This document shows positions 10,742 through 34,342 of a stretch of 64,000 bases of DNA, one piece after another. The DNA is from a virus: IMG/VR virus record IMGVR_UViG_3300045988_130750, positions 64,001-128,000 of that record. One strand, given 5' to 3'. Position numbers and translations under genes: made by a program. Below the pieces are notes generated by a model. It was not told the origin of the DNA. It searched no databases and saw only the letters and a program-made list of their open reading frames with translations. How positions within the stretch are numbered: position 1 is the stretch's first letter; the number at the start of each line of letters is the position of its first letter.

Positions 10742-10822
10742 TAAATGACGATTTCAAATGGATTTTTTGGATTGATTAGTCATATAATATATTAGAAATT
10801 ATTGAAAAATGGAGGTAATTGT

Positions 10823-11152
10823 ATGTTTACACTTAATAAAGGAATTAATTATGTAACAATGAAATGGTATATGGAGAATTTAAAAGAGAAAATTGATATC
10901 CGTGATGTCAATATTGCAAACTATAATACAACTGAATTAGAAAATGTTATCAAAGATATTATATCTAATATTAGTATTGGTAATATTGCTGTCACAGAAA
11001 AATATGTGGTGGTAGAAGGAAGAAAACGTATTTATGCCATTAATGCTTTTATTGATGGTAAAATCAAATTCTCAAATAAATATTATACAGAGTTATCAAA
11101 AGAAGAATTTGATATTTTCAATAATTATGAATTAGGAATTTTTGTTGGATAA
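10823..11152 (+). CDS. small protein with a DUF262/ParB-like core motif
   Basis: ATG 10823 follows ATGGAGGTAATTGT. IGNIAVTEKYVVVEGRKRIYAINAF resembles the DUF262 ...y.iiDGqQRl... segment. Confidence 0.4.
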   Translation: MFTLNKGINYVTMKWYMENLKEKIDIRDVNIANYNTTELENVIKDIISNISIGNIAVTEKYVVVEGRKRIYAINAFIDGKIKFSNKYYTELSKEEFDIFNNYELGIFVG

Positions 11153-12559: not shown

Positions 12560-12733
12560 CTATTTATTGGTGTCGTTGTCAAACTTAGATACTTCATTTG
12601 TTACAAGATTACGAATCCAACCAGAAAGAGATCTACCATCTGCCGTTGCAATTTTTGCAGCTCTTTCTTTTACATCTTTAGAAAGAACTACCATAACCCT
12701 TGTGTTTTCATCTTTGATTTTTCCTTGTGGCAT
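12560..12733 (-). CDS. ribbon-helix-helix (CopG/Arc-type) DNA-binding protein
   Basis: 57-aa minus-strand ORF not in the track: MPQGKIKDENTRVMVVLSKDVKERAAKIATADGRSLSGWIRNLV... SD is AAAGGAGA, 8 nt upstream. It replaces the antisense track ORF 12501..12764. Confidence 0.7.
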   Translation of the reverse strand: MPQGKIKDENTRVMVVLSKDVKERAAKIATADGRSLSGWIRNLVTNEVSKFDNDTNK

Positions 12734-12763: not shown

Positions 12764-12792
12764 ATTATAAGTTGTTGCAAACTATATGTCAA
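12764..12792 (-). promoter_or_regulatory. consensus sigma-A promoter for the RHH gene
   Basis: Read on the minus strand: TTGACA (12792-12787), 17-nt spacer, TATAAT (12769-12764). Confidence 0.7.
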
Positions 12793-12819
12793 TTATTTTT
12801 AAAAAATGACATAAACCTA

Positions 12820-12848
12820 TTGACAAGTTGATGACAACTTGCTATAAT
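12820..12848 (+). promoter_or_regulatory. consensus sigma-A promoter for the MazF-like operon, with a palindrome in the spacer
   Basis: TTGACA (12820-12825), 17-nt spacer, TATAAT (12843-12848). The inverted repeat CAAGTTG-ATGA-CAACTTG overlaps the -35 hexamer and spacer. Confidence 0.75.
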
Positions 12849-12904: not shown

Positions 12905-13285
12905 ATGGATTTACAGAGATACGACATAATAAAGGCAAAAATTAATTATGAAGGAAATTCAGTACAAACGAATGAAAGACCTTATGTAATAGTAAGTAAT
13001 CCATTGGGTACAAAATATGCTCCGATTATAACAGTGATGCCTTTGACAAGTAAGATTAAAAAGACAAACATGCCTTGTCATGGATGTATTCAAGCAAATG
13101 AAAATAATGGATTAACATTATATTCTATGGCATTAGGTGAGCAGATCACAACAATCTCAAAAGATGAAGTGATCTCAAAAATTGGAACTATTACTGATGA
13201 TAAAAATAAAAGAATGGTAGATAAAGTATGTTTTAATTCTTTATTTTTTGGAACAGACTACAAGCTTGAGGAGGTAATGGCATAA
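12905..13285 (+). CDS. PemK/MazF-family endoribonuclease toxin
   Basis: RYDIIKAKINYEG...ERPYVIVSNPLG...IITVMPLTSKIKK..MPCHGCI follows the PemK/MazF pattern (RP.v.vS ... P.TS). Strong SD, GAGAGGAGGAG. Confidence 0.75.
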   Translation: MDLQRYDIIKAKINYEGNSVQTNERPYVIVSNPLGTKYAPIITVMPLTSKIKKTNMPCHGCIQANENNGLTLYSMALGEQITTISKDEVISKIGTITDDKNKRMVDKVCFNSLFFGTDYKLEEVMA

Positions 13286-13834: not shown

Positions 13835-13887
13835 GAACGTATGTACGAAAAAAAGTAATTGACAAATACGAACATATGTTCTATATT
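13835..13887 (+). promoter_or_regulatory. sigma-A promoter overlapped by two LexA (Cheo) boxes
   Basis: GAACGTATGTAC (13835-13846); TTGACA (13859-13864), 17-nt spacer, TATATT (13882-13887). The spacer contains CGAACATATGTTC (13869-13881), a perfect GAAC-N4-GTTC. Confidence 0.7.
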
Positions 13888-14095
13888 ATTCTTATAAAAA
13901 ATAAATATTGCAGTCTAACAAAATACAAACGGTATTGGCGTACCTCTTTTGATAGACTGCAAAGTAACACATATAGCAGAATTAAATTCCGCTTGATATT
14001 ATTGTACATAGATTTTATTAGAAAGTCAAGTTTTTAAACAATCAAGCATTTCTGCTAAATATTTCATATTTTACAATTTTAATTAAGAAAATTAT

Positions 14096-14167
14096 AGGAC
14101 TATCGCCAAGCGGTAAGGCACAGGACTTTGACTCCTGCATTCGCTGGTTCGAATCCAGCTAGTCCTG
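14096..14167 (+). tRNA. tRNA-Gln (anticodon TTG)
   Basis: Hand-folded cloverleaf: acceptor AGGACTA/TAGTCCT, D arm GCC..GGC, anticodon stem CAGGA/TCCTG with loop CTTTGAC, T arm GCTGG-TTCGAAT-CCAGC, discriminator G. Confidence 0.85.
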
Positions 14168-14213
14168 TTATATAATTTTACACTAAATCAAAAAAGAAAG
14201 AGGAGTGATAATA

Positions 14214-14822
14214 TTGGCACAATATGTTATTACAGATGGTTCTCGTTGGATTATGAAAGATAAAAATGGGAAATTTGTTCCCACATCTTGCGAACCGCTG
14301 GCTGATGTATTTGGTAATAAGGAAGTTAATTCGGTGTATCAAAACAATTTGCCGAAGGCATTGAAATCGGTCTTTCATATCGAGAAGATTGATAAGCCTC
14401 CAAAGTTGGTAAAGCAAATTACACATGCGGAAGTACAAGAGAATACAGAAACGGTGTCGGTTGCAGAAAATATCCAATATTGGGTAGATAAGGTATCTGG
14501 TTTGAATGGACTTGCTGCTGAAGCATTACATAGAAAAGAAGAATTGATTAATCAGTTAAGTGAAGTTGATAAGGAACTTTGCGATATTAATCATTACATA
14601 GAATTTTGCAACTTAAATGCAGCTCAGGGTTATAAAGCATACAAAATGATCAAGGATCGGAGAATAAAGAGACGAAGTATTAAAAATGAGTTGGATGTTC
14701 TTAGTATTATTCTTGGAAAGAAAATATCTGAATCTGTCAGTGATGAATTACAAAAGATGATTAACGGATTAGATGGAAGAAAATATGAGCCAAGAGTAAT
14801 GAATGAGTTATTCGATTTCTAA
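14214..14822 (+). CDS. hypothetical protein with C-terminal coiled coil
   Basis: TTG 14214 lies 8 nt after AGAGGAG; the track start GTG 14205 sits inside the SD. First CDS downstream of the LexA-box promoter. Confidence 0.6.
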   Translation: MAQYVITDGSRWIMKDKNGKFVPTSCEPLADVFGNKEVNSVYQNNLPKALKSVFHIEKIDKPPKLVKQITHAEVQENTETVSVAENIQYWVDKVSGLNGLAAEALHRKEELINQLSEVDKELCDINHYIEFCNLNAAQGYKAYKMIKDRRIKRRSIKNELDVLSIILGKKISESVSDELQKMINGLDGRKYEPRVMNELFDF

Positions 14823-14836
14823 ATGAGGTGATAAAA

Positions 14837-15010
14837 ATGATTTGTAGAGATTGTCGTATTCCAATGCAAAATATAATGTCATTTTCATCGGACAAGCATG
14901 AAAAGTTTTGCAGGTGTCCGAAGTGTTTTGGAGAAACCAAGCACACAAAAATCAAAGATGATGACTTAGATTTTGTAGAAGTATTACATAGGGAAATGAA
15001 CAGGAAATAA
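14837..15010 (+). CDS. small zinc-ribbon protein
   Basis: ATG 14837 follows ATGAGGTGATAAAA. Contains CRDC...CRCPKC. Confidence 0.6.
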   Translation: MICRDCRIPMQNIMSFSSDKHEKFCRCPKCFGETKHTKIKDDDLDFVEVLHREMNRK

Positions 15011-15028
15011 TGTAAGGTGGTGTATCAA

Positions 15029-17125
15029 GTGAACAAAATAGAACTTAACAAAGAACAACTCGCCATAATTGATGAGTATTGTTGCGATGGGATGAAGAAA
15101 CTAAAGAAGTTGTGCGATCCAATTATTATGAAAATTGGTGGGATTAGTGAAAAGGATCACGATGATATTTACAGTTTGGCGCAGTTTCTTCTATATAAAA
15201 GTGTGAAGAATTATGACAAGGATAATGCAAATGGAGCTTCATTTAAGACATTTCTTTACAATATTCTTAGTCGAAGAATTTATGCTACTTATATCAGAGA
15301 TAAGAACCGTCAGTGCCGAAGCAACACGAGAATCGGTAAGAATGGAGAAGTGATATTCATTCCAGATGTTTCGCTTGATGCAGCTACAGAAGAAACACAA
15401 GATATTAAAGAAAAAATTGCATCAGATTATAACGTAGAGGATGCGAGTGAATTTGATTTTACGGTTGATGAGAATGTTGAGAATTTTATGTCGTCATTAA
15501 GTAATATTCAAAGAAAAATACTTGAAATGAAAATGAAAGAAATCCCAACTGATAAGATTAGGTCAGAATTAGGGATTTCAGCAGCTAGGTATGCAAAAGA
15601 AATGGAATCTATCAAACTTAATGAAGGACTGTTAGTGTTTACGAAGAATAGAAAAGAATTTATCGAGGAGGATATGCATATGGAAGAAAGAGTAATGGGA
15701 ATTAGCGAGTCTGAAGGATATAGAATGGATAAGTATTCTATGTTTTCTTTACTTGATATGAAGAAAACAGGTGATATTAACTGTAAGTATATCTTACAGA
15801 GAAAGCCTTTTCAGTGGAGTAACGAGGAGAGAAACAGATATATTTGCAGAATTCTTTCTAATCTTCCAATTCCAGAGATTATTCTTTGTGAACAAAATGT
15901 AAAAGGCATGACGATTTCTCATTTGATTGATGGATTACAACGTTTGTCATATGCTGAAGCATTTAAAGAGAATCATTTCAAGGTTGGAGAGACAGGAGCT
16001 GAGAGGCATTTAATTCAGTATAGAGAGTACATTCATGATGAGAACGGAAATAGAGTTCTTGATGAAGATGGTATCCCAGAATTTGAATTAAAGGTGTGTG
16101 ATATTGTTGGAAAATCATATAAGGATTTGCCTGATGAATTGAAAAAGAGATTTAATAATTTCAATATCAATGTTACAAAATTTTTTAACTGTACAAATGA
16201 ACAGATTGCCGACCATATTCGAGATTACAACAATCACTCAGCTATGAATAATGAACAGTCTGGAATTGTATCAATCTCAACCGATACTGCAAGAAAGATC
16301 AAGACAATCACTGAGAAGTGTGGATTTTTAAAGAATTGTGGTAAATACACCACTACAAACAGGATCAAAGGTAAACTTGATAGAATGGTTGCAGAGATGA
16401 TTATGTTGCTTTTCCATCCGAATGATTGGAAATCTAATGTAAAAGCTACATATAAATATCTTGACGAAAATGCAAAGCAAGAAGAATTCGATACATTATC
16501 TTCTGAATTGGATATGCTTGAATCAGTGATTGAGAATGCTGGCGATGATATCAATGCAATGTTCACTACTACATATACTCCAATGTGGGTTGCAGTATTT
16601 CATAATTTCCTTACAAGCGGTAAAGATTTACATAATTTTGTTGATTTCTTAAATGCATATAATAGTGAACTTAAAGATACAGAAGTTAATGGTGTTTCAA
16701 TGGCAGATTTTAAGGATCAGCAGTCGAAGAAAAAGGCAACTATTACAGGTAAGGTTGATTTGCTTATTCAGCTTATGAATGACTATTTACATATTAATAC
16801 AACCGAAACAGAGAATGATAATACTGAACTTTCAGATGATACAATTCTTAATTTTGTGAAAGAAAATTATAAACCAGATGCAAATGAAGATGATATTAGT
16901 TTTTATTCTGATTTAGTTGATGATTGTGTAAAAATTGATGAACCTGTATATAAAGAATGCCATGCAGCATTAATTACTCTTATGGCATATGCTTGTTCAC
17001 AAGACAAAGATCAAGATTTTGAAAAATGGATTGATAATTACAAAACTAAGTCTGATTTTAGCCCATCGCAAAAGACCAATTTTACATATATGAAGAGAAG
17101 TTTTGATAATTATCTAAATGTATAA
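15029..17125 (+). CDS. sigma-70-family-like N-terminal region fused to a DUF262 (ParB/GmrSD-type) domain
   Basis: N-terminus: FKTFLYNILSRRIYATYIRDKNR (region 2-like) and LSNIQRKILEMKMKEIPTDKIRSELGISAARYAKEMESI (region 4 HTH-like). From about aa 250: LQRKPFQWSNEERNRYICRILSNLPIPEIIL...ISHLIDGLQRLS, the DUF262 signature. Start is GTG 15029 after AAGGTGG. Confidence 0.6.
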   Translation: MNKIELNKEQLAIIDEYCCDGMKKLKKLCDPIIMKIGGISEKDHDDIYSLAQFLLYKSVKNYDKDNANGASFKTFLYNILSRRIYATYIRDKNRQCRSNTRIGKNGEVIFIPDVSLDAATEETQDIKEKIASDYNVEDASEFDFTVDENVENFMSSLSNIQRKILEMKMKEIPTDKIRSELGISAARYAKEMESIKLNEGLLVFTKNRKEFIEEDMHMEERVMGISESEGYRMDKYSMFSLLDMKKTGDINCKYILQRKPFQWSNEERNRYICRILSNLPIPEIILCEQNVKGMTISHLIDGLQRLSYAEAFKENHFKVGETGAERHLIQYREYIHDENGNRVLDEDGIPEFELKVCDIVGKSYKDLPDELKKRFNNFNINVTKFFNCTNEQIADHIRDYNNHSAMNNEQSGIVSISTDTARKIKTITEKCGFLKNCGKYTTTNRIKGKLDRMVAEMIMLLFHPNDWKSNVKATYKYLDENAKQEEFDTLSSELDMLESVIENAGDDINAMFTTTYTPMWVAVFHNFLTSGKDLHNFVDFLNAYNSELKDTEVNGVSMADFKDQQSKKKATITGKVDLLIQLMNDYLHINTTETENDNTELSDDTILNFVKENYKPDANEDDISFYSDLVDDCVKIDEPVYKECHAALITLMAYACSQDKDQDFEKWIDNYKTKSDFSPSQKTNFTYMKRSFDNYLNV

Positions 17126-17249: not shown

Positions 17250-17322
17250 AGCGGATTAGTGTAATGGTTTAGCAAGCAGAGCTTTGACCTCTGAGGTAAG
17301 AGTTCGATTCTCTTATCCGCTG
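17250..17322 (+). tRNA. tRNA-Gln (anticodon TTG), second and sequence-distinct copy
   Basis: Acceptor AGCGGAT/ATCCGCT, anticodon stem CAGAG/CTCTG with loop CTTTGAC, T arm AAGAG-TTCGATT-CTCTT, discriminator G. The D stem has only 3 bp. Confidence 0.7.
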
Positions 17323-17326
17323 TTAT

Positions 17327-17399
17327 GGATCATTAGCTCAGTGGTTAGAGCAGTCGGCTCATAACCGAAAGGTCATAGGTTCGAGTCCTATATGATCCA
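17327..17399 (+). tRNA. tRNA with CAT anticodon (Met or Ile2)
   Basis: Acceptor GGATCAT/ATGATCC, D arm GCTC-AGTGGTTA-GAGC, anticodon loop CTCATAA, T arm ATAGG-TTCGAGT-CCTAT. Lies 4 nt after the previous tRNA. Confidence 0.85.
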
Positions 17400-17558
17400 T
17401 TATAAATTAAAGAAAGGAGAAATAATATGTCATATTGGACTTATAACTTCTAAATTAAGAAAATTCATTATTGATGGAGATATTGGAAGTGAAGTAGATA
17501 AACTTGCCAAAATTTTTAGACCTGATTTAGAAGAAGATGAGATTATCACAAAAGAGCG

Positions 17559-20162: not shown

Positions 20163-20207
20163 CAGGAAGAAATTCACGTTTCATAGGAAATTTTGGAGGT
20201 TAAGACA

Positions 20208-21236
20208 ATGACAATTGAGCAAATTAAGGACAAATTAAAATCAAAAGAGTATGACTTCCTGAGAACAGATAAGAATTTGGGTGACAATATCATTATCTTA
20301 ACTCTTGGTGGAAGTCATGCATATGGAACTAATAATGAGGGTAGTGACTTAGATATTCGTGGTTGTGCTTTAAATAGCAAGATGCAAATTCTTACAAACG
20401 AGAATTTTGAGCAGTTTGTAAATAATGAAACAGACACGACTATTTATGCATTTAATAAGTTAGTTGCTTTATTAAGCAATACAAATCCTAACACAATTGA
20501 GATGCTTGGAAATAAGCCAGAACATTATTTCTATGTATCTCCTATTGGTCAGGAACTTATTGACAATGCACATTTATTCTTATCAAAAAGAGCTTGTCAT
20601 TCATTTGGTGGATATGCGAATCAGCAGCTCTATAGATTGAATCAGAAAGCAGCACATCAGATGTCTCAGTCAGAATTGGAGAAACACATTTTAAAGACGC
20701 TTGAATTTATGCAGACAGATTTTACAAAGAAATACACACCATATTCAGATGATTCAATGAAGTTATATATTGATAAGGCTGTACAGGAAGGATATGACAC
20801 AGAGATTTTTATGGATGTGAACCTTACTCATTATCCATTGAGAGATTATTGCTCTATGTGGAATGAACTTCAGAACACAGTTCGTCAGTATGGAAAGATT
20901 GGTAAAAGAAATGAGAAAGCTATTGAGCATGGTAAGATTGCAAAACATTCAATGCATCTCATTCGACTTTATATGATGTGCTTAGATATTCTTGAAAAAG
21001 AGAGAATAATCACATATAGAGAAGATGAACATGATTTGCTTATGGATATTCGTAATGGTAAATATCTCGACAGCAACGATCAGCCAATTCCTGAGTTCTT
21101 TGAAATGGTAAATGACTATGAGAAGAGATTGGATTATGCAAAGAAAAATACTAATCTTCCTGACAATCCAGACTACAAGAAAATCAATGAGTTTGTTGCA
21201 AGTGTAAACGAAAGGGTGGTTAAGGGTGAAATCTAA
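20208..21236 (+). CDS. Pol-beta-superfamily nucleotidyltransferase, RlaP-like (RNA-repair associated)
   Basis: ATG 20208 follows TTGGAGGTTAAGACA. LTLGGSHAYGTNNEGSDLDIRG is the GS...D.D nucleotidyltransferase motif in the context typical of the COG3541 / RlaP family. Confidence 0.6.
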   Translation: MTIEQIKDKLKSKEYDFLRTDKNLGDNIIILTLGGSHAYGTNNEGSDLDIRGCALNSKMQILTNENFEQFVNNETDTTIYAFNKLVALLSNTNPNTIEMLGNKPEHYFYVSPIGQELIDNAHLFLSKRACHSFGGYANQQLYRLNQKAAHQMSQSELEKHILKTLEFMQTDFTKKYTPYSDDSMKLYIDKAVQEGYDTEIFMDVNLTHYPLRDYCSMWNELQNTVRQYGKIGKRNEKAIEHGKIAKHSMHLIRLYMMCLDILEKERIITYREDEHDLLMDIRNGKYLDSNDQPIPEFFEMVNDYEKRLDYAKKNTNLPDNPDYKKINEFVASVNERVVKGEI

Positions 21237-22602
21237 ATTAAAAATTAAAATCCCATCTGGTGCAAATGAGATTATTCATACACTCCAAGATAAAGGATAT
21301 GAAGCATATTTAGTTGGTGGATGTGTTCGTGATAGCATTCTGAAAAGACCAATTCACGATTATGATATTACAACATCTGCTACACCTGATGAGATGATGG
21401 AAGTATTCAAAGGTAAAAGAATTATTGAAACTGGCTTACAGCATGGAACAATAACAATTGTCATTGATGGCGAACCATACGAGGTAACAACTTACAGAAT
21501 TGATGGTAATTATTCTGACAATCGCAGACCAGACAAAGTAACATTTACACGAAGCCTTGAAGAAGATTTAAAGCGTAGAGATTTTACAATCAATGCAATG
21601 GCATACAATGATGAAGTTGGTCTTGTAGATCCGTTTAATGGCATGGAAGATATTAAATACCACAAGATTAGATGTGTTGGCAGAGCAGAAGACAGATTTT
21701 CAGAAGATGCATTAAGAATTTTACGTGCTATTCGATTTGCCTCACAGTTGGGATTTGTCCTTGAACCTGATACAGATTGGAATATCTCTAAAATGTATAA
21801 GAATTTGGAGAATATATCTATTGAAAGGATCAATAGTGAGTTCTGTAAAATTGCTGCATCGAGTGATTTCTGTGTACAAATGGTCTTATATCACGAAGTA
21901 TTCTCATTGTTCATTCCTGAAATTAAAGATATGTTTGGCTTTCAACAGAATAATCCATATCACATGTATGATGTATGGAATCATACAGTACATGCAGTAC
22001 AAGCTTATGAATGTGATTGTGAACCCGACTTGAACCCAAGAGATTTGATTACATCATTGGCTGTATTTTTTCATGATATTGGAAAGCCACATTGTTATCA
22101 AGATGGCGAGGATGGTATTAGACATTTCAAAGGTCACGGAAGAGTAAGTGCTGATATGACTGATACAATTATGAAAAGACTTCGTTTTGATAATGATACA
22201 AGAGAAAAAGTAGTGCAGCTTGTTTATTATTATGATGCAACTTTTGAGGTAGGAAAGAAATATGTCAAGAGATGGCTTAGTAAAATTGGAGAAGAACAGT
22301 TCAGAAGGTTATTAGATGTTCGTAGAGCTGATATTAAAGCACAAGCAGACATTAATCAGGAAACAAGATTACAGAAGATTGATAATATCGAATACATTTT
22401 AGAAGAAGTCTTACAAGATGATGAATGTTTTTCTCTAAAGGATTTAGCAGTTAATGGTAAGGATTTAATTACTATTGGATATAAGCCAGGAAAAGAAATT
22501 GGTGAGGTATTAAATAATCTGTTGGATTCAATCATTAGTGGAGAATATATAAATGAGAAAGAAAAATTATTAGAAATAGCAAAGAGGAGATTATATGGTT
22601 AA
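21226..22602 (+). CDS. cca: CCA-adding tRNA nucleotidyltransferase with HD domain
   Basis: YLVGGCVRDSILKRPIHDYDITT (head motif), RDFTINAMAY, and FFHDIGKP (HD). Overlaps the upstream gene by 11 nt. Confidence 0.85.
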   Translation: MKSKLKIKIPSGANEIIHTLQDKGYEAYLVGGCVRDSILKRPIHDYDITTSATPDEMMEVFKGKRIIETGLQHGTITIVIDGEPYEVTTYRIDGNYSDNRRPDKVTFTRSLEEDLKRRDFTINAMAYNDEVGLVDPFNGMEDIKYHKIRCVGRAEDRFSEDALRILRAIRFASQLGFVLEPDTDWNISKMYKNLENISIERINSEFCKIAASSDFCVQMVLYHEVFSLFIPEIKDMFGFQQNNPYHMYDVWNHTVHAVQAYECDCEPDLNPRDLITSLAVFFHDIGKPHCYQDGEDGIRHFKGHGRVSADMTDTIMKRLRFDNDTREKVVQLVYYYDATFEVGKKYVKRWLSKIGEEQFRRLLDVRRADIKAQADINQETRLQKIDNIEYILEEVLQDDECFSLKDLAVNGKDLITIGYKPGKEIGEVLNNLLDSIISGEYINEKEKLLEIAKRRLYG

Positions 22603-33256: not shown

Positions 33257-34342
33257 ATGGCAAGAGCATTAGCGCATATTGAAGAAATTAATTCTATTAT
33301 CCCAATTGAGGGCAAGGATAGAATTGTATTAGCAACAGTATTAGGTTGGACAGTAATTGTTCAAAAGGATTTTAAGGTAGGAGATAAGGTTGTATTTGCA
33401 GAGATTGATTCTGTATTTCCTGATAAGCCTGAGTTTGAATTTTTAAGAAATAAGAAATTCCGTATTAAGACAATGAAGATGGCAGGCGTAATTAGCCAGG
33501 GAATTGTATTCCCATTATCAATTCTTCCAGAAGGAGAATATAACATTGGTGATGATGTAACAGATATTCTTGGCATCACACAGTATGAACCAACAATGGA
33601 TAAAGAAGAGATGGATACAGAAAGTATAAAGACACCTGTGAAGAAATATCCTGAATTTTTAATGAGAATGAGTTGGTTTAGAAAGCTTGTATTACCAAAG
33701 AAACAGGCTAAAGGTTTCCCAAGTTTTATTAGTAAGACTGACGAAACAAGAATTCAGAATGCACCTTTCTATCTGAATATGGATTGTAATTGGATTGCAA
33801 CAGAAAAGGTAGATGGACAGAGTGGTTCATTTACATTGCAGCGAGTAAAGGGTAAGCATTTTTGGAATAAGGATACATATGATTTCGCAGTTTGTTCAAG
33901 AAATCTTAGAAAGTGGAAGAAAGATACATCTTCGTTTTGGAGCGTTGCTGAGAAATACAACATCGAAGAGGTTCTTCATAAGTTAATTGGAGACAACGAG
34001 TGGGTAGCAATTCAAGGAGAATGTGTTGCATCTAATGTTCAGGGCAATAAATATCATGTTACAGAACCAGATTTATATGTTTTCAATTTAATTTATCCAA
34101 GTGGAAGAGTCGGATCTGTAGAAGCAAAGAAGATTGTAAATAATTTAGGGTTAAAGTTTGTTCCTATTTTATCTGAAAATGCACAGATTAAAGGAATGAC
34201 TGTACCAGAAGTTCTTGAATATGCAACAGGCAAAAGTCAGTTATATGACACTCTAAGAGAGGGAATTGTATTCAGAAGCGAAGATGGAAAGCAGTCATTT
34301 AAGGCAGTTAGTCCTGAGTTTTTATTGAAGAATAACGAGTAG
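33257..34342 (+). CDS. ATP-dependent RNA ligase, Rnl5-like (DraRnl/NgrRnl type) with N-terminal OB-like domain
   Basis: N-terminal LAHIEEINSIIPIEGKDRIVLATVLGWTVIVQKDFKVGDKVVFAEIDSVFP; motif I EKVDGQS; then CSRN, IQGECV, LYVFNL, EGIVFR, FKAVSPEF. Confidence 0.7.
   Translation: MARALAHIEEINSIIPIEGKDRIVLATVLGWTVIVQKDFKVGDKVVFAEIDSVFPDKPEFEFLRNKKFRIKTMKMAGVISQGIVFPLSILPEGEYNIGDDVTDILGITQYEPTMDKEEMDTESIKTPVKKYPEFLMRMSWFRKLVLPKKQAKGFPSFISKTDETRIQNAPFYLNMDCNWIATEKVDGQSGSFTLQRVKGKHFWNKDTYDFAVCSRNLRKWKKDTSSFWSVAEKYNIEEVLHKLIGDNEWVAIQGECVASNVQGNKYHVTEPDLYVFNLIYPSGRVGSVEAKKIVNNLGLKFVPILSENAQIKGMTVPEVLEYATGKSQLYDTLREGIVFRSEDGKQSFKAVSPEFLLKNNE

Follow-up and report, generated by a model that had tools for sequence, protein, structure and literature searches.

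A sigma factor-like protein joined to a ParB-fold DUF262 module in phages: fused and split forms, a conserved internal start and a predicted LexA-controlled promoter

The window analyzed here, 64,000 nucleotides of the virus record IMG/VR IMGVR_UViG_3300045988_130750 (positions 64,001 to 128,000 of that record), carries on its + strand a gene for a predicted 698-residue protein in which a minimal sigma factor-like half is followed, within a single open reading frame (ORF), by a ParB-fold DUF262 module. The best-supported reading of the sequence evidence, in which we place middling confidence, is that of a phage sigma factor which would be derepressed by the SOS response and would work with a DUF262 partner able to bind nucleoside triphosphates (NTPs) and DNA. 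Four observations carry it: the identity of the domains, the alternation of fused and split forms among relatives, the conservation of a ribosome-binding site inside the fused gene, and the conservation of a promoter holding a LexA box. The gene and the parts of its product are listed below, with the evidence in brackets; all positions are those of the window.

15029-17125, + strand: coding sequence of the sigma-DUF262 fusion, 698 residues, GTG start, Shine-Dalgarno sequence AAGGTGGTG at 15014-15022 (ORF, profiles, homologues)
15050-15316, + strand: sigma region 2-like domain, residues ~8-96 (Sigma70_r2 E 0.003, TIGR02937, relatives, AlphaFold2 (AF2) helices and Foldseek)
15317-15469, + strand: sigma2-sigma4 linker, residues 97-147, with a conserved CRSNT...NG..F.PD.SLD beta-hairpin (alignment, AF2)
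15470-15616, + strand: sigma region 4-like helix-turn-helix domain, residues 148-196 (PDB profile matches; Sigma70_r4_2 and GerE matches in relatives)
15667-15682, + strand: internal ribosome-binding site GGAGG with in-frame ATG 15680 (codon 218), start of a predicted 481-residue DUF262-only isoform (junction comparison)
15713-16258, + strand: ParB-fold DUF262 (GmrSD_N) domain, residues ~229-410 (Pfam, motifs, AF2/Foldseek, NsnA profile)
16259-16798, + strand: all-helical domain without nuclease motif, residues ~411-590 (AF2 predicted local distance difference test (pLDDT) mostly >85, Foldseek match to BrxU)
16835-17122, + strand: C-terminal helical domain, residues ~603-698, with invariant W667, following a variable acidic linker (alignment, AF2)

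The ORF scan of the window gives an uninterrupted frame from 15017 to 17125 on the + strand, of which GTG 15029, six nucleotides 3' of AAGGTGGTG, is the likely start, in agreement with the N-termini of homologues, which begin MDKIELN. An earlier note on this DNA had already read the frame as a single-ORF fusion of a sigma factor with DUF262, and all of the peptides it quoted are found in the protein. That reading is borne out by the 120 matches listed from a large protein collection, all of which are 698-702 residues long and 95-100% identical to the window protein. Near-identical genes called at this same length come from ENA, Logan, JGI and NCBI, in over 100 independent assemblies and in part on contigs of several hundred kilobases, which argues that the ORF is not the product of a frameshift or of an assembly artefact.

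At the superfamily level, the assignment of the N-terminal ~200 residues to a two-domain (sigma2 + sigma4) protein resembling extracytoplasmic function (ECF) sigma factors and SigH, as judged from profiles and models, appears solid. The region 2-like and region 4 helix-turn-helix-like peptides singled out in the earlier note, FKTFLYNILSRRIYATYIRDKNR and LSNIQRKILEMKMKEIPTDKIRSELGISAARYAKEMESI, correspond to residues 72-94 and 157-195, respectively. Taken by itself, the window protein scores 17.7 bits against Pfam Sigma70_r2 (cut-off 24; E 0.003) and 36.7 bits against NCBIfam TIGR02937 (sigma70-ECF; cut-off 42.9; E 3e-9), the latter match extending over regions 2 to 4 (residues 32-187), and it matches phrog_1740, annotated as RNA polymerase sigma factor, with an E value of 1e-7. 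Among 40 full-length relatives, 24 match Sigma70_r2 (E<0.01; best 1.2e-7), six Sigma70_r4_2 and three Sigma70_ECF; a profile of 28 N-terminal homologues retrieved from the PDB 3mzy (sigma-H, over positions 55-197 of the family profile) and 1rp3 (sigma4 of FliA), both with E ~1e-4. Comparison of an AF2 model of the N-terminal 215 residues with the PDB by Foldseek returned almost exclusively sigma factors and sigma-containing complexes among the 50 matches listed, headed by Bacillus subtilis SigH (E 5.9e-5) and including Mycobacterium tuberculosis SigH and SigL, SigE, AlgU and SigW. Family-wide profile matches and fold searches thus uphold the sigma-like N-terminus, even though the scores of the protein itself remain below threshold. 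The profile matches, the extension of the TIGR02937 match to residue 187 and the relatives all place a region 4 helix-turn-helix C-terminal to region 2; regions 1.1 and 3 are absent from the window protein, which leaves a minimal sigma2-linker-sigma4 arrangement. An ECF-type sigma factor is normally about the size of the stand-alone versions of this half (198-215 residues) that are found in the split loci described below. Such a protein would be expected to bind core RNA polymerase and to initiate transcription at specific promoters.

The second half opens with the DUF262 domain that the earlier note had recognized from the peptide LQRKPFQW...LIDGLQRLS (residues 256-308). The domain scores above the Pfam gathering cut-off (GmrSD_N, PF03235, residues 260-405; 37.1 bits against 33.2; E 4.5e-9) and its motifs are intact, Q257-R258, E288 and D301-G302-x-Q304-R305 (QR / E / DGxQR) being invariant or nearly so across the family; PF03235 is matched by 44 of 56 and by 26 of 40 relatives in the two sets of relatives searched. 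The AF2 model shows pLDDT >90 across most of residues 230-590, and the best Foldseek match of the C-terminal part in the PDB is BrxU, a GmrSD-family enzyme (622 alignment columns), followed by the nucleotide-binding domains of ParB and Noc, which are weak matches (E 0.2-0.5). A sequence-profile search of the C-terminal family against the PDB found nothing significant, the fold search alone having reached BrxU and ParB. In PADLOC, the best and sole match of the C-terminal part is NsnA (E 5e-13), with none to GmrSD/BrxU/SspE or DndB for the window protein, and PF02195 (ParBc) matches neither that protein nor 40 relatives. The earlier note had counted about 220 residues after DUF262 and seen no DUF1524/HNH-like motif in them; the length is in fact ~290 residues, and the absence of DUF1524/HNH holds for the window protein and for all 96 relatives searched (0/56 and 0/40). 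No conserved His/Asn/Asp set is seen in the family alignment of these helical ~290 residues, the near-invariant positions after residue 410 being F, G, M, K, L and W. From the model, residues ~411-590 are probably a ParBDB-type DNA-binding domain as in NsnA, DndB, GmrSD and SspE (for the ParBDB concept, see PMC12065111). Given the lack of a nuclease, and given that the neighbourhoods read contain tRNAs and small ORFs downstream and no genes for an NsnB ABC-ATPase or NsnC effector and no dnd or ssp genes, the module is a nuclease-less DUF262 protein standing outside any known defence operon, presumably one that binds NTP and DNA.

The fusion, of which the earlier note knew no other example, turns out to be far from singular. 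An exhaustive search of 1.84 billion cluster representatives yielded 813 relatives, 217 of them at E <= 1e-30; among the 149 representatives listed, 77 have both parts fused, 70 have the DUF262 part only and two the sigma part only. Fused versions (49-59% identity) are also found on most of 51 IMG/VR contigs of 90-215 kb. With the N-terminal 215 residues as the query, stand-alone proteins of ~204-215 residues are retrieved (44-68% identity), and the gene that follows such a stand-alone sigma gene after a gap of 12-22 nucleotides encodes 471-482 residues homologous to residues 232-698 of the window protein (32-33% identity, E ~1e-73). In further split loci that were checked, the sigma-like gene lies 5-58 nucleotides upstream of the DUF262 gene. 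INPHARED holds a single gut phage, MT835469 (176 kb, unannotated), with a fused homologue (28% identity), as well as matching DUF262 proteins of Bacillus phages, with no sigma gene adjacent in the one region read. A 194-residue ORF that follows the fused gene of MT835469 (8244-8828) looks ParB-like by eye. No close relative of the fused protein was found in the GTDB species-representative genomes, where alignment of the N-terminal part picked out one prophage, that of Eubacterium segne BX4. In the window itself there is no second sigma or DUF262 paralogue besides a weak ORF at 10802-11152, to which we return below. The alternative that the single ORF is an artefact, in which two adjacent genes were merged by a sequencing or assembly error deleting a stop codon, could draw on the close relatives that have two genes with a stop codon ahead of the same ribosome-binding site, but it is effectively refuted already by the long near-identical copies from many samples and assemblers and by the divergent representatives and IMG/VR contigs that are likewise fused.

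In a crude tree based on the C-terminal part, about 10 changes between the fused and the split state are counted, a figure to be taken as rough because the tree was built by the unweighted pair group method with arithmetic mean on p-distances. Repeated joining and separation with adjacency kept throughout suggests that the sigma and DUF262 proteins very probably function together in one complex. The gene of the window is, in addition, a mosaic: from 14186 to 15388 its DNA is 86% identical to that of a split-gene phage (L063), and past ~15388, in the sigma2-sigma4 linker, nucleotide similarity to that phage is no longer detectable. By this comparison ~15388 is a recombination breakpoint, sigma2 apparently travelling with the two upstream genes and sigma4 with the DUF262 module; the end of homology to the split lineage within the linker is suggestive of sigma4 and the DUF262 module having arrived as one block.

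At its domain junction, the fused gene has a predicted internal start that corresponds to the start of the separate DUF262 gene in split relatives. The sequence GAGGAGGATATGCATATG (15665-15682) holds two in-frame ATGs, at 15674 and 15680, both of which the earlier note had paired with the internal Shine-Dalgarno sequence. The GGAGG at 15667-15671 lies 8 nucleotides ahead of ATG 15680 and just 2 nucleotides ahead of ATG 15674, a spacing by which only the former appears suitable. The window junction, GGAGG-ATATGCAT-ATG, resembles the ribosome-binding site that precedes the separate gene of split relatives, for example GGAGG-AATATGCA-ATG, and each of the 13 junction variants examined among fused genes, that of the 28%-identity protein included, retains an in-frame GGAGG-N7-9-ATG. 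The conserved ATG sits 36-39 codons ahead of the QR motif. The flanking residues vary (V/T/M/L/E before, V/E/D after), yet the junction Glu codon is always GAG, which accounts for 22% of Glu codons in these genes, and the codon before it always ends in G, as do 16.5% of codons gene-wide; elsewhere in the fused ORFs, GGAGG occurs at ~0.36 per kb. Fixed codon choice in the face of varying amino acids points to selection for a ribosome-binding site at the nucleotide level, and the fused genes very likely make both the 698-residue protein and a DUF262-only protein of 481 residues.

Expression of the gene is predicted to respond to DNA damage. The spacer of the sigmaA-type promoter of the operon (TTGACA-17-TATATT) contains a predicted LexA (Cheo-type) box, cGAACATATGTTC, at 13869-13881, which we take to be of the LexA operator type of Firmicutes; GAACGTATGTAC, at 13835-13846, is a second but imperfect box. 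Of 57 related loci, 23 have an exact GAAC-N4-GTTC box no more than 2 kb ahead of the sigma gene, amid diverse flanks, and 25 of the 40 boxes present in 554 kb of loci fall within the 114 kb of upstream regions. Upstream of the same operon, the prophage of Eubacterium segne BX4, a cultured member of the Clostridia, has TTGACA-ATAT-CGAACGGACGTTC-TATTAT. The LexA-box promoter described in the earlier note is thus present with the same layout in relatives and in a prophage, and, given the conserved boxes and this host, there appears to be good support both for control of the operon by SOS and for a host range within Clostridia. The prophage locus (L064; NZ_JACOOZ010000003.1, 95905-104471) has the split arrangement, with a 202-residue gene, a 207-residue sigma and a 502-residue DUF262 protein. 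The other features of the unit are as follows.

13859-13887, + strand: sigmaA-type promoter TTGACA-17-TATATT of the operon (promoter scan, relatives)
14095-14168, + strand: tRNA-Gln(ttg), between the promoter and the first coding sequence of the unit (ARAGORN)
14205-14822, + strand: conserved upstream gene, 202-205 residues (205 here), phrog_32601, no Pfam match (synteny)
14828-15010, + strand: small CxxC...CxxC zinc-ribbon-like protein, 57-60 residues (60 here), no Pfam match (conserved directly upstream of the sigma gene)
17250-17400, + strand: tRNA-Gln(ttg), 17250-17322, and tRNA-Met(cat), 17326-17400, directly downstream of the fused gene (ARAGORN)

Put together, these elements would describe a phage alternative sigma factor (minimal sigma2-sigma4, ECF/SigH-like) joined to an obligate partner, itself a ParB-fold DUF262 protein that has no nuclease and whose helical domains probably bind DNA. 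Host sigmaA RNA polymerase would read the operon from a consensus promoter occluded by LexA, such that the protein would be made upon relief of repression, either through SOS or because the infected cell contains little free LexA. Host core RNA polymerase would then be directed by the sigma part to promoters of the phage. Made twice, as the C-terminus of the 698-residue protein and as the free 481-residue protein from the internal ribosome-binding site, the DUF262 part would bind nucleotide and phage DNA, probably dimerize with the tethered copy, and thereby set where or when the sigma factor is active. Binding of core RNA polymerase, promoter specificity, binding of NTP and DNA, dimerization and the positive or negative sign of the partner's effect are all inferred.

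Several results weigh against this proposal. The sigma-family sequence scores of the window protein all fall under curated cut-offs, and the predicted template modelling score of the AF2 model (0.56) makes its sigma-DUF262 contacts uninformative. The closest relative in the defence library, NsnA, is a defence sensor, and the gene sits in an integrase/toxin neighbourhood of a kind in which accessory genes are common. The main gap is the promoter: no cognate motif for the sigma part emerged from the scans of the window. The sequence AGAGAATA occurs there in 34 + strand copies, from 13412 to 63524 and none before 13412, is more frequent, by a factor of ~3.5, between genes than elsewhere, and clusters at 38.5-41.6 kb; in relatives, it also precedes the sigma gene. 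Ribosome-binding sites of the form GGAGAATA-N-ATG account for many of the GAGAATA copies, and no fixed upstream (-35-like) partner of AGAGAATA is seen in the window. The earlier note's master regulator of phage-wide transcription, with TTTC and AGAGAATA boxes as its promoters, is accordingly a conjecture. Promoters of the sigmaH type (AGGAWWW-N11-13-RNNGAAT) are not enriched, with two matches against 3.0 expected.

Alternatively, the DUF262 module might be an anti-sigma factor or auto-inhibitor, acting in cis or, in split phages, as a separate protein, and released by a nucleotide or DNA cue. We regard this as unlikely, if the most serious of the competing explanations. The C-terminal extensions of ECF41 and ECF42 sigma factors regulate activity in cis and provide a parallel, since there, too, a regulatory domain lies C-terminal to a minimal sigma. 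The alternation of fused and split forms implies physical interaction, sigma4 and the DUF262 module were co-inherited across the linker breakpoint, and overproduction of the free short isoform through the internal ribosome-binding site would fit a titratable inhibitor. Co-inheritance is, however, explicable by genetic linkage alone, the profile searches revealed no resemblance to known anti-sigma domains, and the DUF262/helical architecture is otherwise linked to DNA sensing and binding (PMC12065111).

A more elaborate idea, rather improbable in our estimation, is that the DUF262 and helical domains form a DNA clamp gated by NTP, or a sensor of DNA state, that would license the tethered sigma factor on phage DNA only, for example when this DNA is modified, replicating or carrying a loading site. 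Long/short heterodimers would be the working unit, and a ParB-type nucleotide switch would be tied to the choice of promoters that host RNA polymerase makes. Phage T4 gp55/gp33/gp45 is a DNA-clamp-coupled sigma system whose activity depends on a DNA-tracking protein. The protein of the window would be an analogue, with a different fold, of this sliding-clamp-dependent late sigma; the clamp-like behaviour of the DUF262 module is pure conjecture, and the two are likened without a shown sequence relationship. UviA, of the TcdR group, is an SOS-controlled alternative sigma factor of Clostridia mobile elements. It resembles the window protein in being a small ECF-like sigma on a mobile element under a DNA-damage signal, again without a shown sequence relationship (the TcdR group is described in PMC10467148).

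Lastly, the protein may be no initiation factor but an NsnA/DndB-like sensor or repressor, engaged in superinfection exclusion, anti-defence or operon repression, whose sigma-like N-terminus would be an extra DNA-binding 'sensor' domain. NsnA is its only PADLOC match, variable N-terminal DNA-binding domains are found on 23% of NsnA proteins (PMC12065111), DndB is a DUF262 transcriptional repressor (PMC12065111; bioRxiv 10.1101/2025.10.10.680097), and a PemK toxin, a ribbon-helix-helix protein and an integrase are encoded in the neighbourhood. We nonetheless find this doubtful, and less likely than the foregoing: the conserved region is a full sigma2 domain rather than a helix-turn-helix only, the N-terminal part is free-standing and sigma-sized in split phages, and tRNAs and small ORFs take the place of the NsnB, NsnC, dnd or nuclease genes that would be expected of such a sensor. 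The position of the module is, moreover, constant in divergent relatives while the flanking genes vary.

We found no description in the literature of a sigma-DUF262 architecture, or of a sigma factor combined with a ParB-like or DndB protein of this type, although individual copies have been deposited: a fused homologue, A0A8S5SVH7, stands in UniProt/BFVD as 'DUF262 domain-containing protein', and JGI names some copies 'RNA polymerase sigma factor'. The N-terminal half shares with group 4 (ECF)/SigH-like sigma factors the layout of ~200 residues with sigma2 and sigma4, the region 2/4 patterns and the SigH/SigL/SigE/SigW fold, and shares the small sigma2 + sigma4 layout with the annotated phage-encoded sigma factors of Paenibacillus phages Hayley and Vegas. 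It differs from ECF sigma factors in its sub-cut-off scores, in the conserved beta-hairpin of its linker and in its ~480-residue ParB-fold DUF262 partner. The nearest precedent comes from a 2025 survey of fusions of the ParB-CTPase fold (PF02195), which lists uvig_297896_22, a Sigma70 fusion from a gut phage; this protein binds ATP and loses binding upon an R-to-A change in its GxxR motif (Kaljevic et al., bioRxiv 10.1101/2025.10.10.680097). Both are proteins of human-gut phages in which Sigma70-type domains accompany a ParB-superfamily nucleotide-binding fold. The first ~130 residues of the uvig_297896_22 construct, on which the comparison rests, are a canonical ParBc domain (PF02195) with the motif VDGEHRVRA, whereas the window protein has its sigma domains at the N-terminus and belongs to the DUF262 (PF03235) clade; to the extent that this part of the construct is informative, the two would thus differ in domain order and in ParB clade. 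The survey gives no function for the fusion and makes no mention of split forms, an internal start or SOS control.

On the DUF262 side, NsnA (Menshen), DndB and the N-terminal and middle parts of GmrSD/BrxU and SspE likewise have a helical domain after a ParB-DUF262 domain that carries QR and DGxQR motifs. The C-terminal DUF1524 (HNH/His-Me) nuclease of GmrSD, BrxU and SspE is missing from the window protein. In Menshen, NsnA is followed by the NsnB ABC-ATPase and the NsnC effector (PMC12065111), whereas the present gene has no NsnB or NsnC neighbours and is phage-encoded rather than part of a host defence island; DndB is encoded together with the dndACDE phosphorothioation genes, none of which occur in the neighbourhoods read here. 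Canonical ParB, Noc and KorB are CTP-dependent clamps with a GxxRxxA box in their ParBc domain, a central helix-turn-helix and a C-terminal domain for dimerization; the likeness to them is confined to the weak N-domain fold matches given above, with no match to PF02195.

The window belongs to a low-GC phage genome with nearly all genes on one strand and its own replication genes; related contigs measure 90-215 kb. Upstream of the fused gene come, in order, a tyrosine integrase, a reverse-strand ribbon-helix-helix gene, a PemK/MazF-like toxin gene, tRNA-Gln and the two conserved genes, an order retained in the relatives whose gene tables were read; in all five of these relatives the phrog_32601 gene is syntenic with the sigma gene. 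tRNA genes bracket the sigma operon on both sides. The earlier note had called the fused gene the last coding sequence of the LexA-box unit, a limit that the sequence does not bear out: no + strand terminator is predicted between this gene and the downstream tRNAs, which may for that reason be co-transcribed. Perfect divergent sigmaA promoters (TTGACA-17-TATAAT on both strands) are found at 12764-12848, flanked by a 57-residue ribbon-helix-helix/CopG-like gene (12560-12733, reverse strand), the one reverse-strand gene of appreciable size noted in the examined region from 9 to 22 kb, and by the PemK/MazF-like toxin gene (12905-13285). With its divergent antitoxin-like gene, this pair looks like a lysis/lysogeny or toxin-antitoxin switch. 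The miniature DUF262-like ORF reported earlier next to the integrase is the following.

10802-11152, + strand: small, weak ParB/DUF262-like ORF, 109-116 residues (GmrSD_N E 9e-4, 19.8 bits, below the cut-off)

The ParB/DUF262-like similarity of this ORF is weak. Besides the sub-cut-off GmrSD_N score, it matches phrog_12047 (ParB-like, E 0.007) and PD-Lambda-5_A and NsnA (E ~2-5e-4), and it is the second-best match in the window to the profile of the family's C-terminal part (E 0.02). Where DGxQR is expected, it has EGRKR. The ORF may encode a stand-alone ParB-fold protein of the short kind that is reportedly common in phages. Further downstream, at 20193-22602 and 33257-34342, the window encodes an RNA-repair set made up of an RlaP-family nucleotidyltransferase, a CCA-adding/poly(A) polymerase-HD enzyme and an RNA ligase; in relatives, this variable region also holds Thg1, SIR2, TerD and a P-type ATPase. 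The set suggests that the phage counters host anticodon nucleases by repairing tRNA.

Phage sigma factors are familiar, and so are DUF262 sensors; what is apparently undescribed is their conserved pairing, fused or split. The family is a clear-cut case from nature of one gene maintained in both states, with the internal start of the second protein preserved, and the availability of a prophage in cultured Eubacterium segne BX4 makes direct testing possible. If the proposed function is correct, it would link the host SOS signal, the redirection of RNA polymerase and a ParB-superfamily nucleotide switch, hitherto tied to DNA segregation and foreign-DNA sensing, in abundant human-gut Clostridia phages, and the family would represent a widespread and testable coupling of a sigma factor to such a switch.

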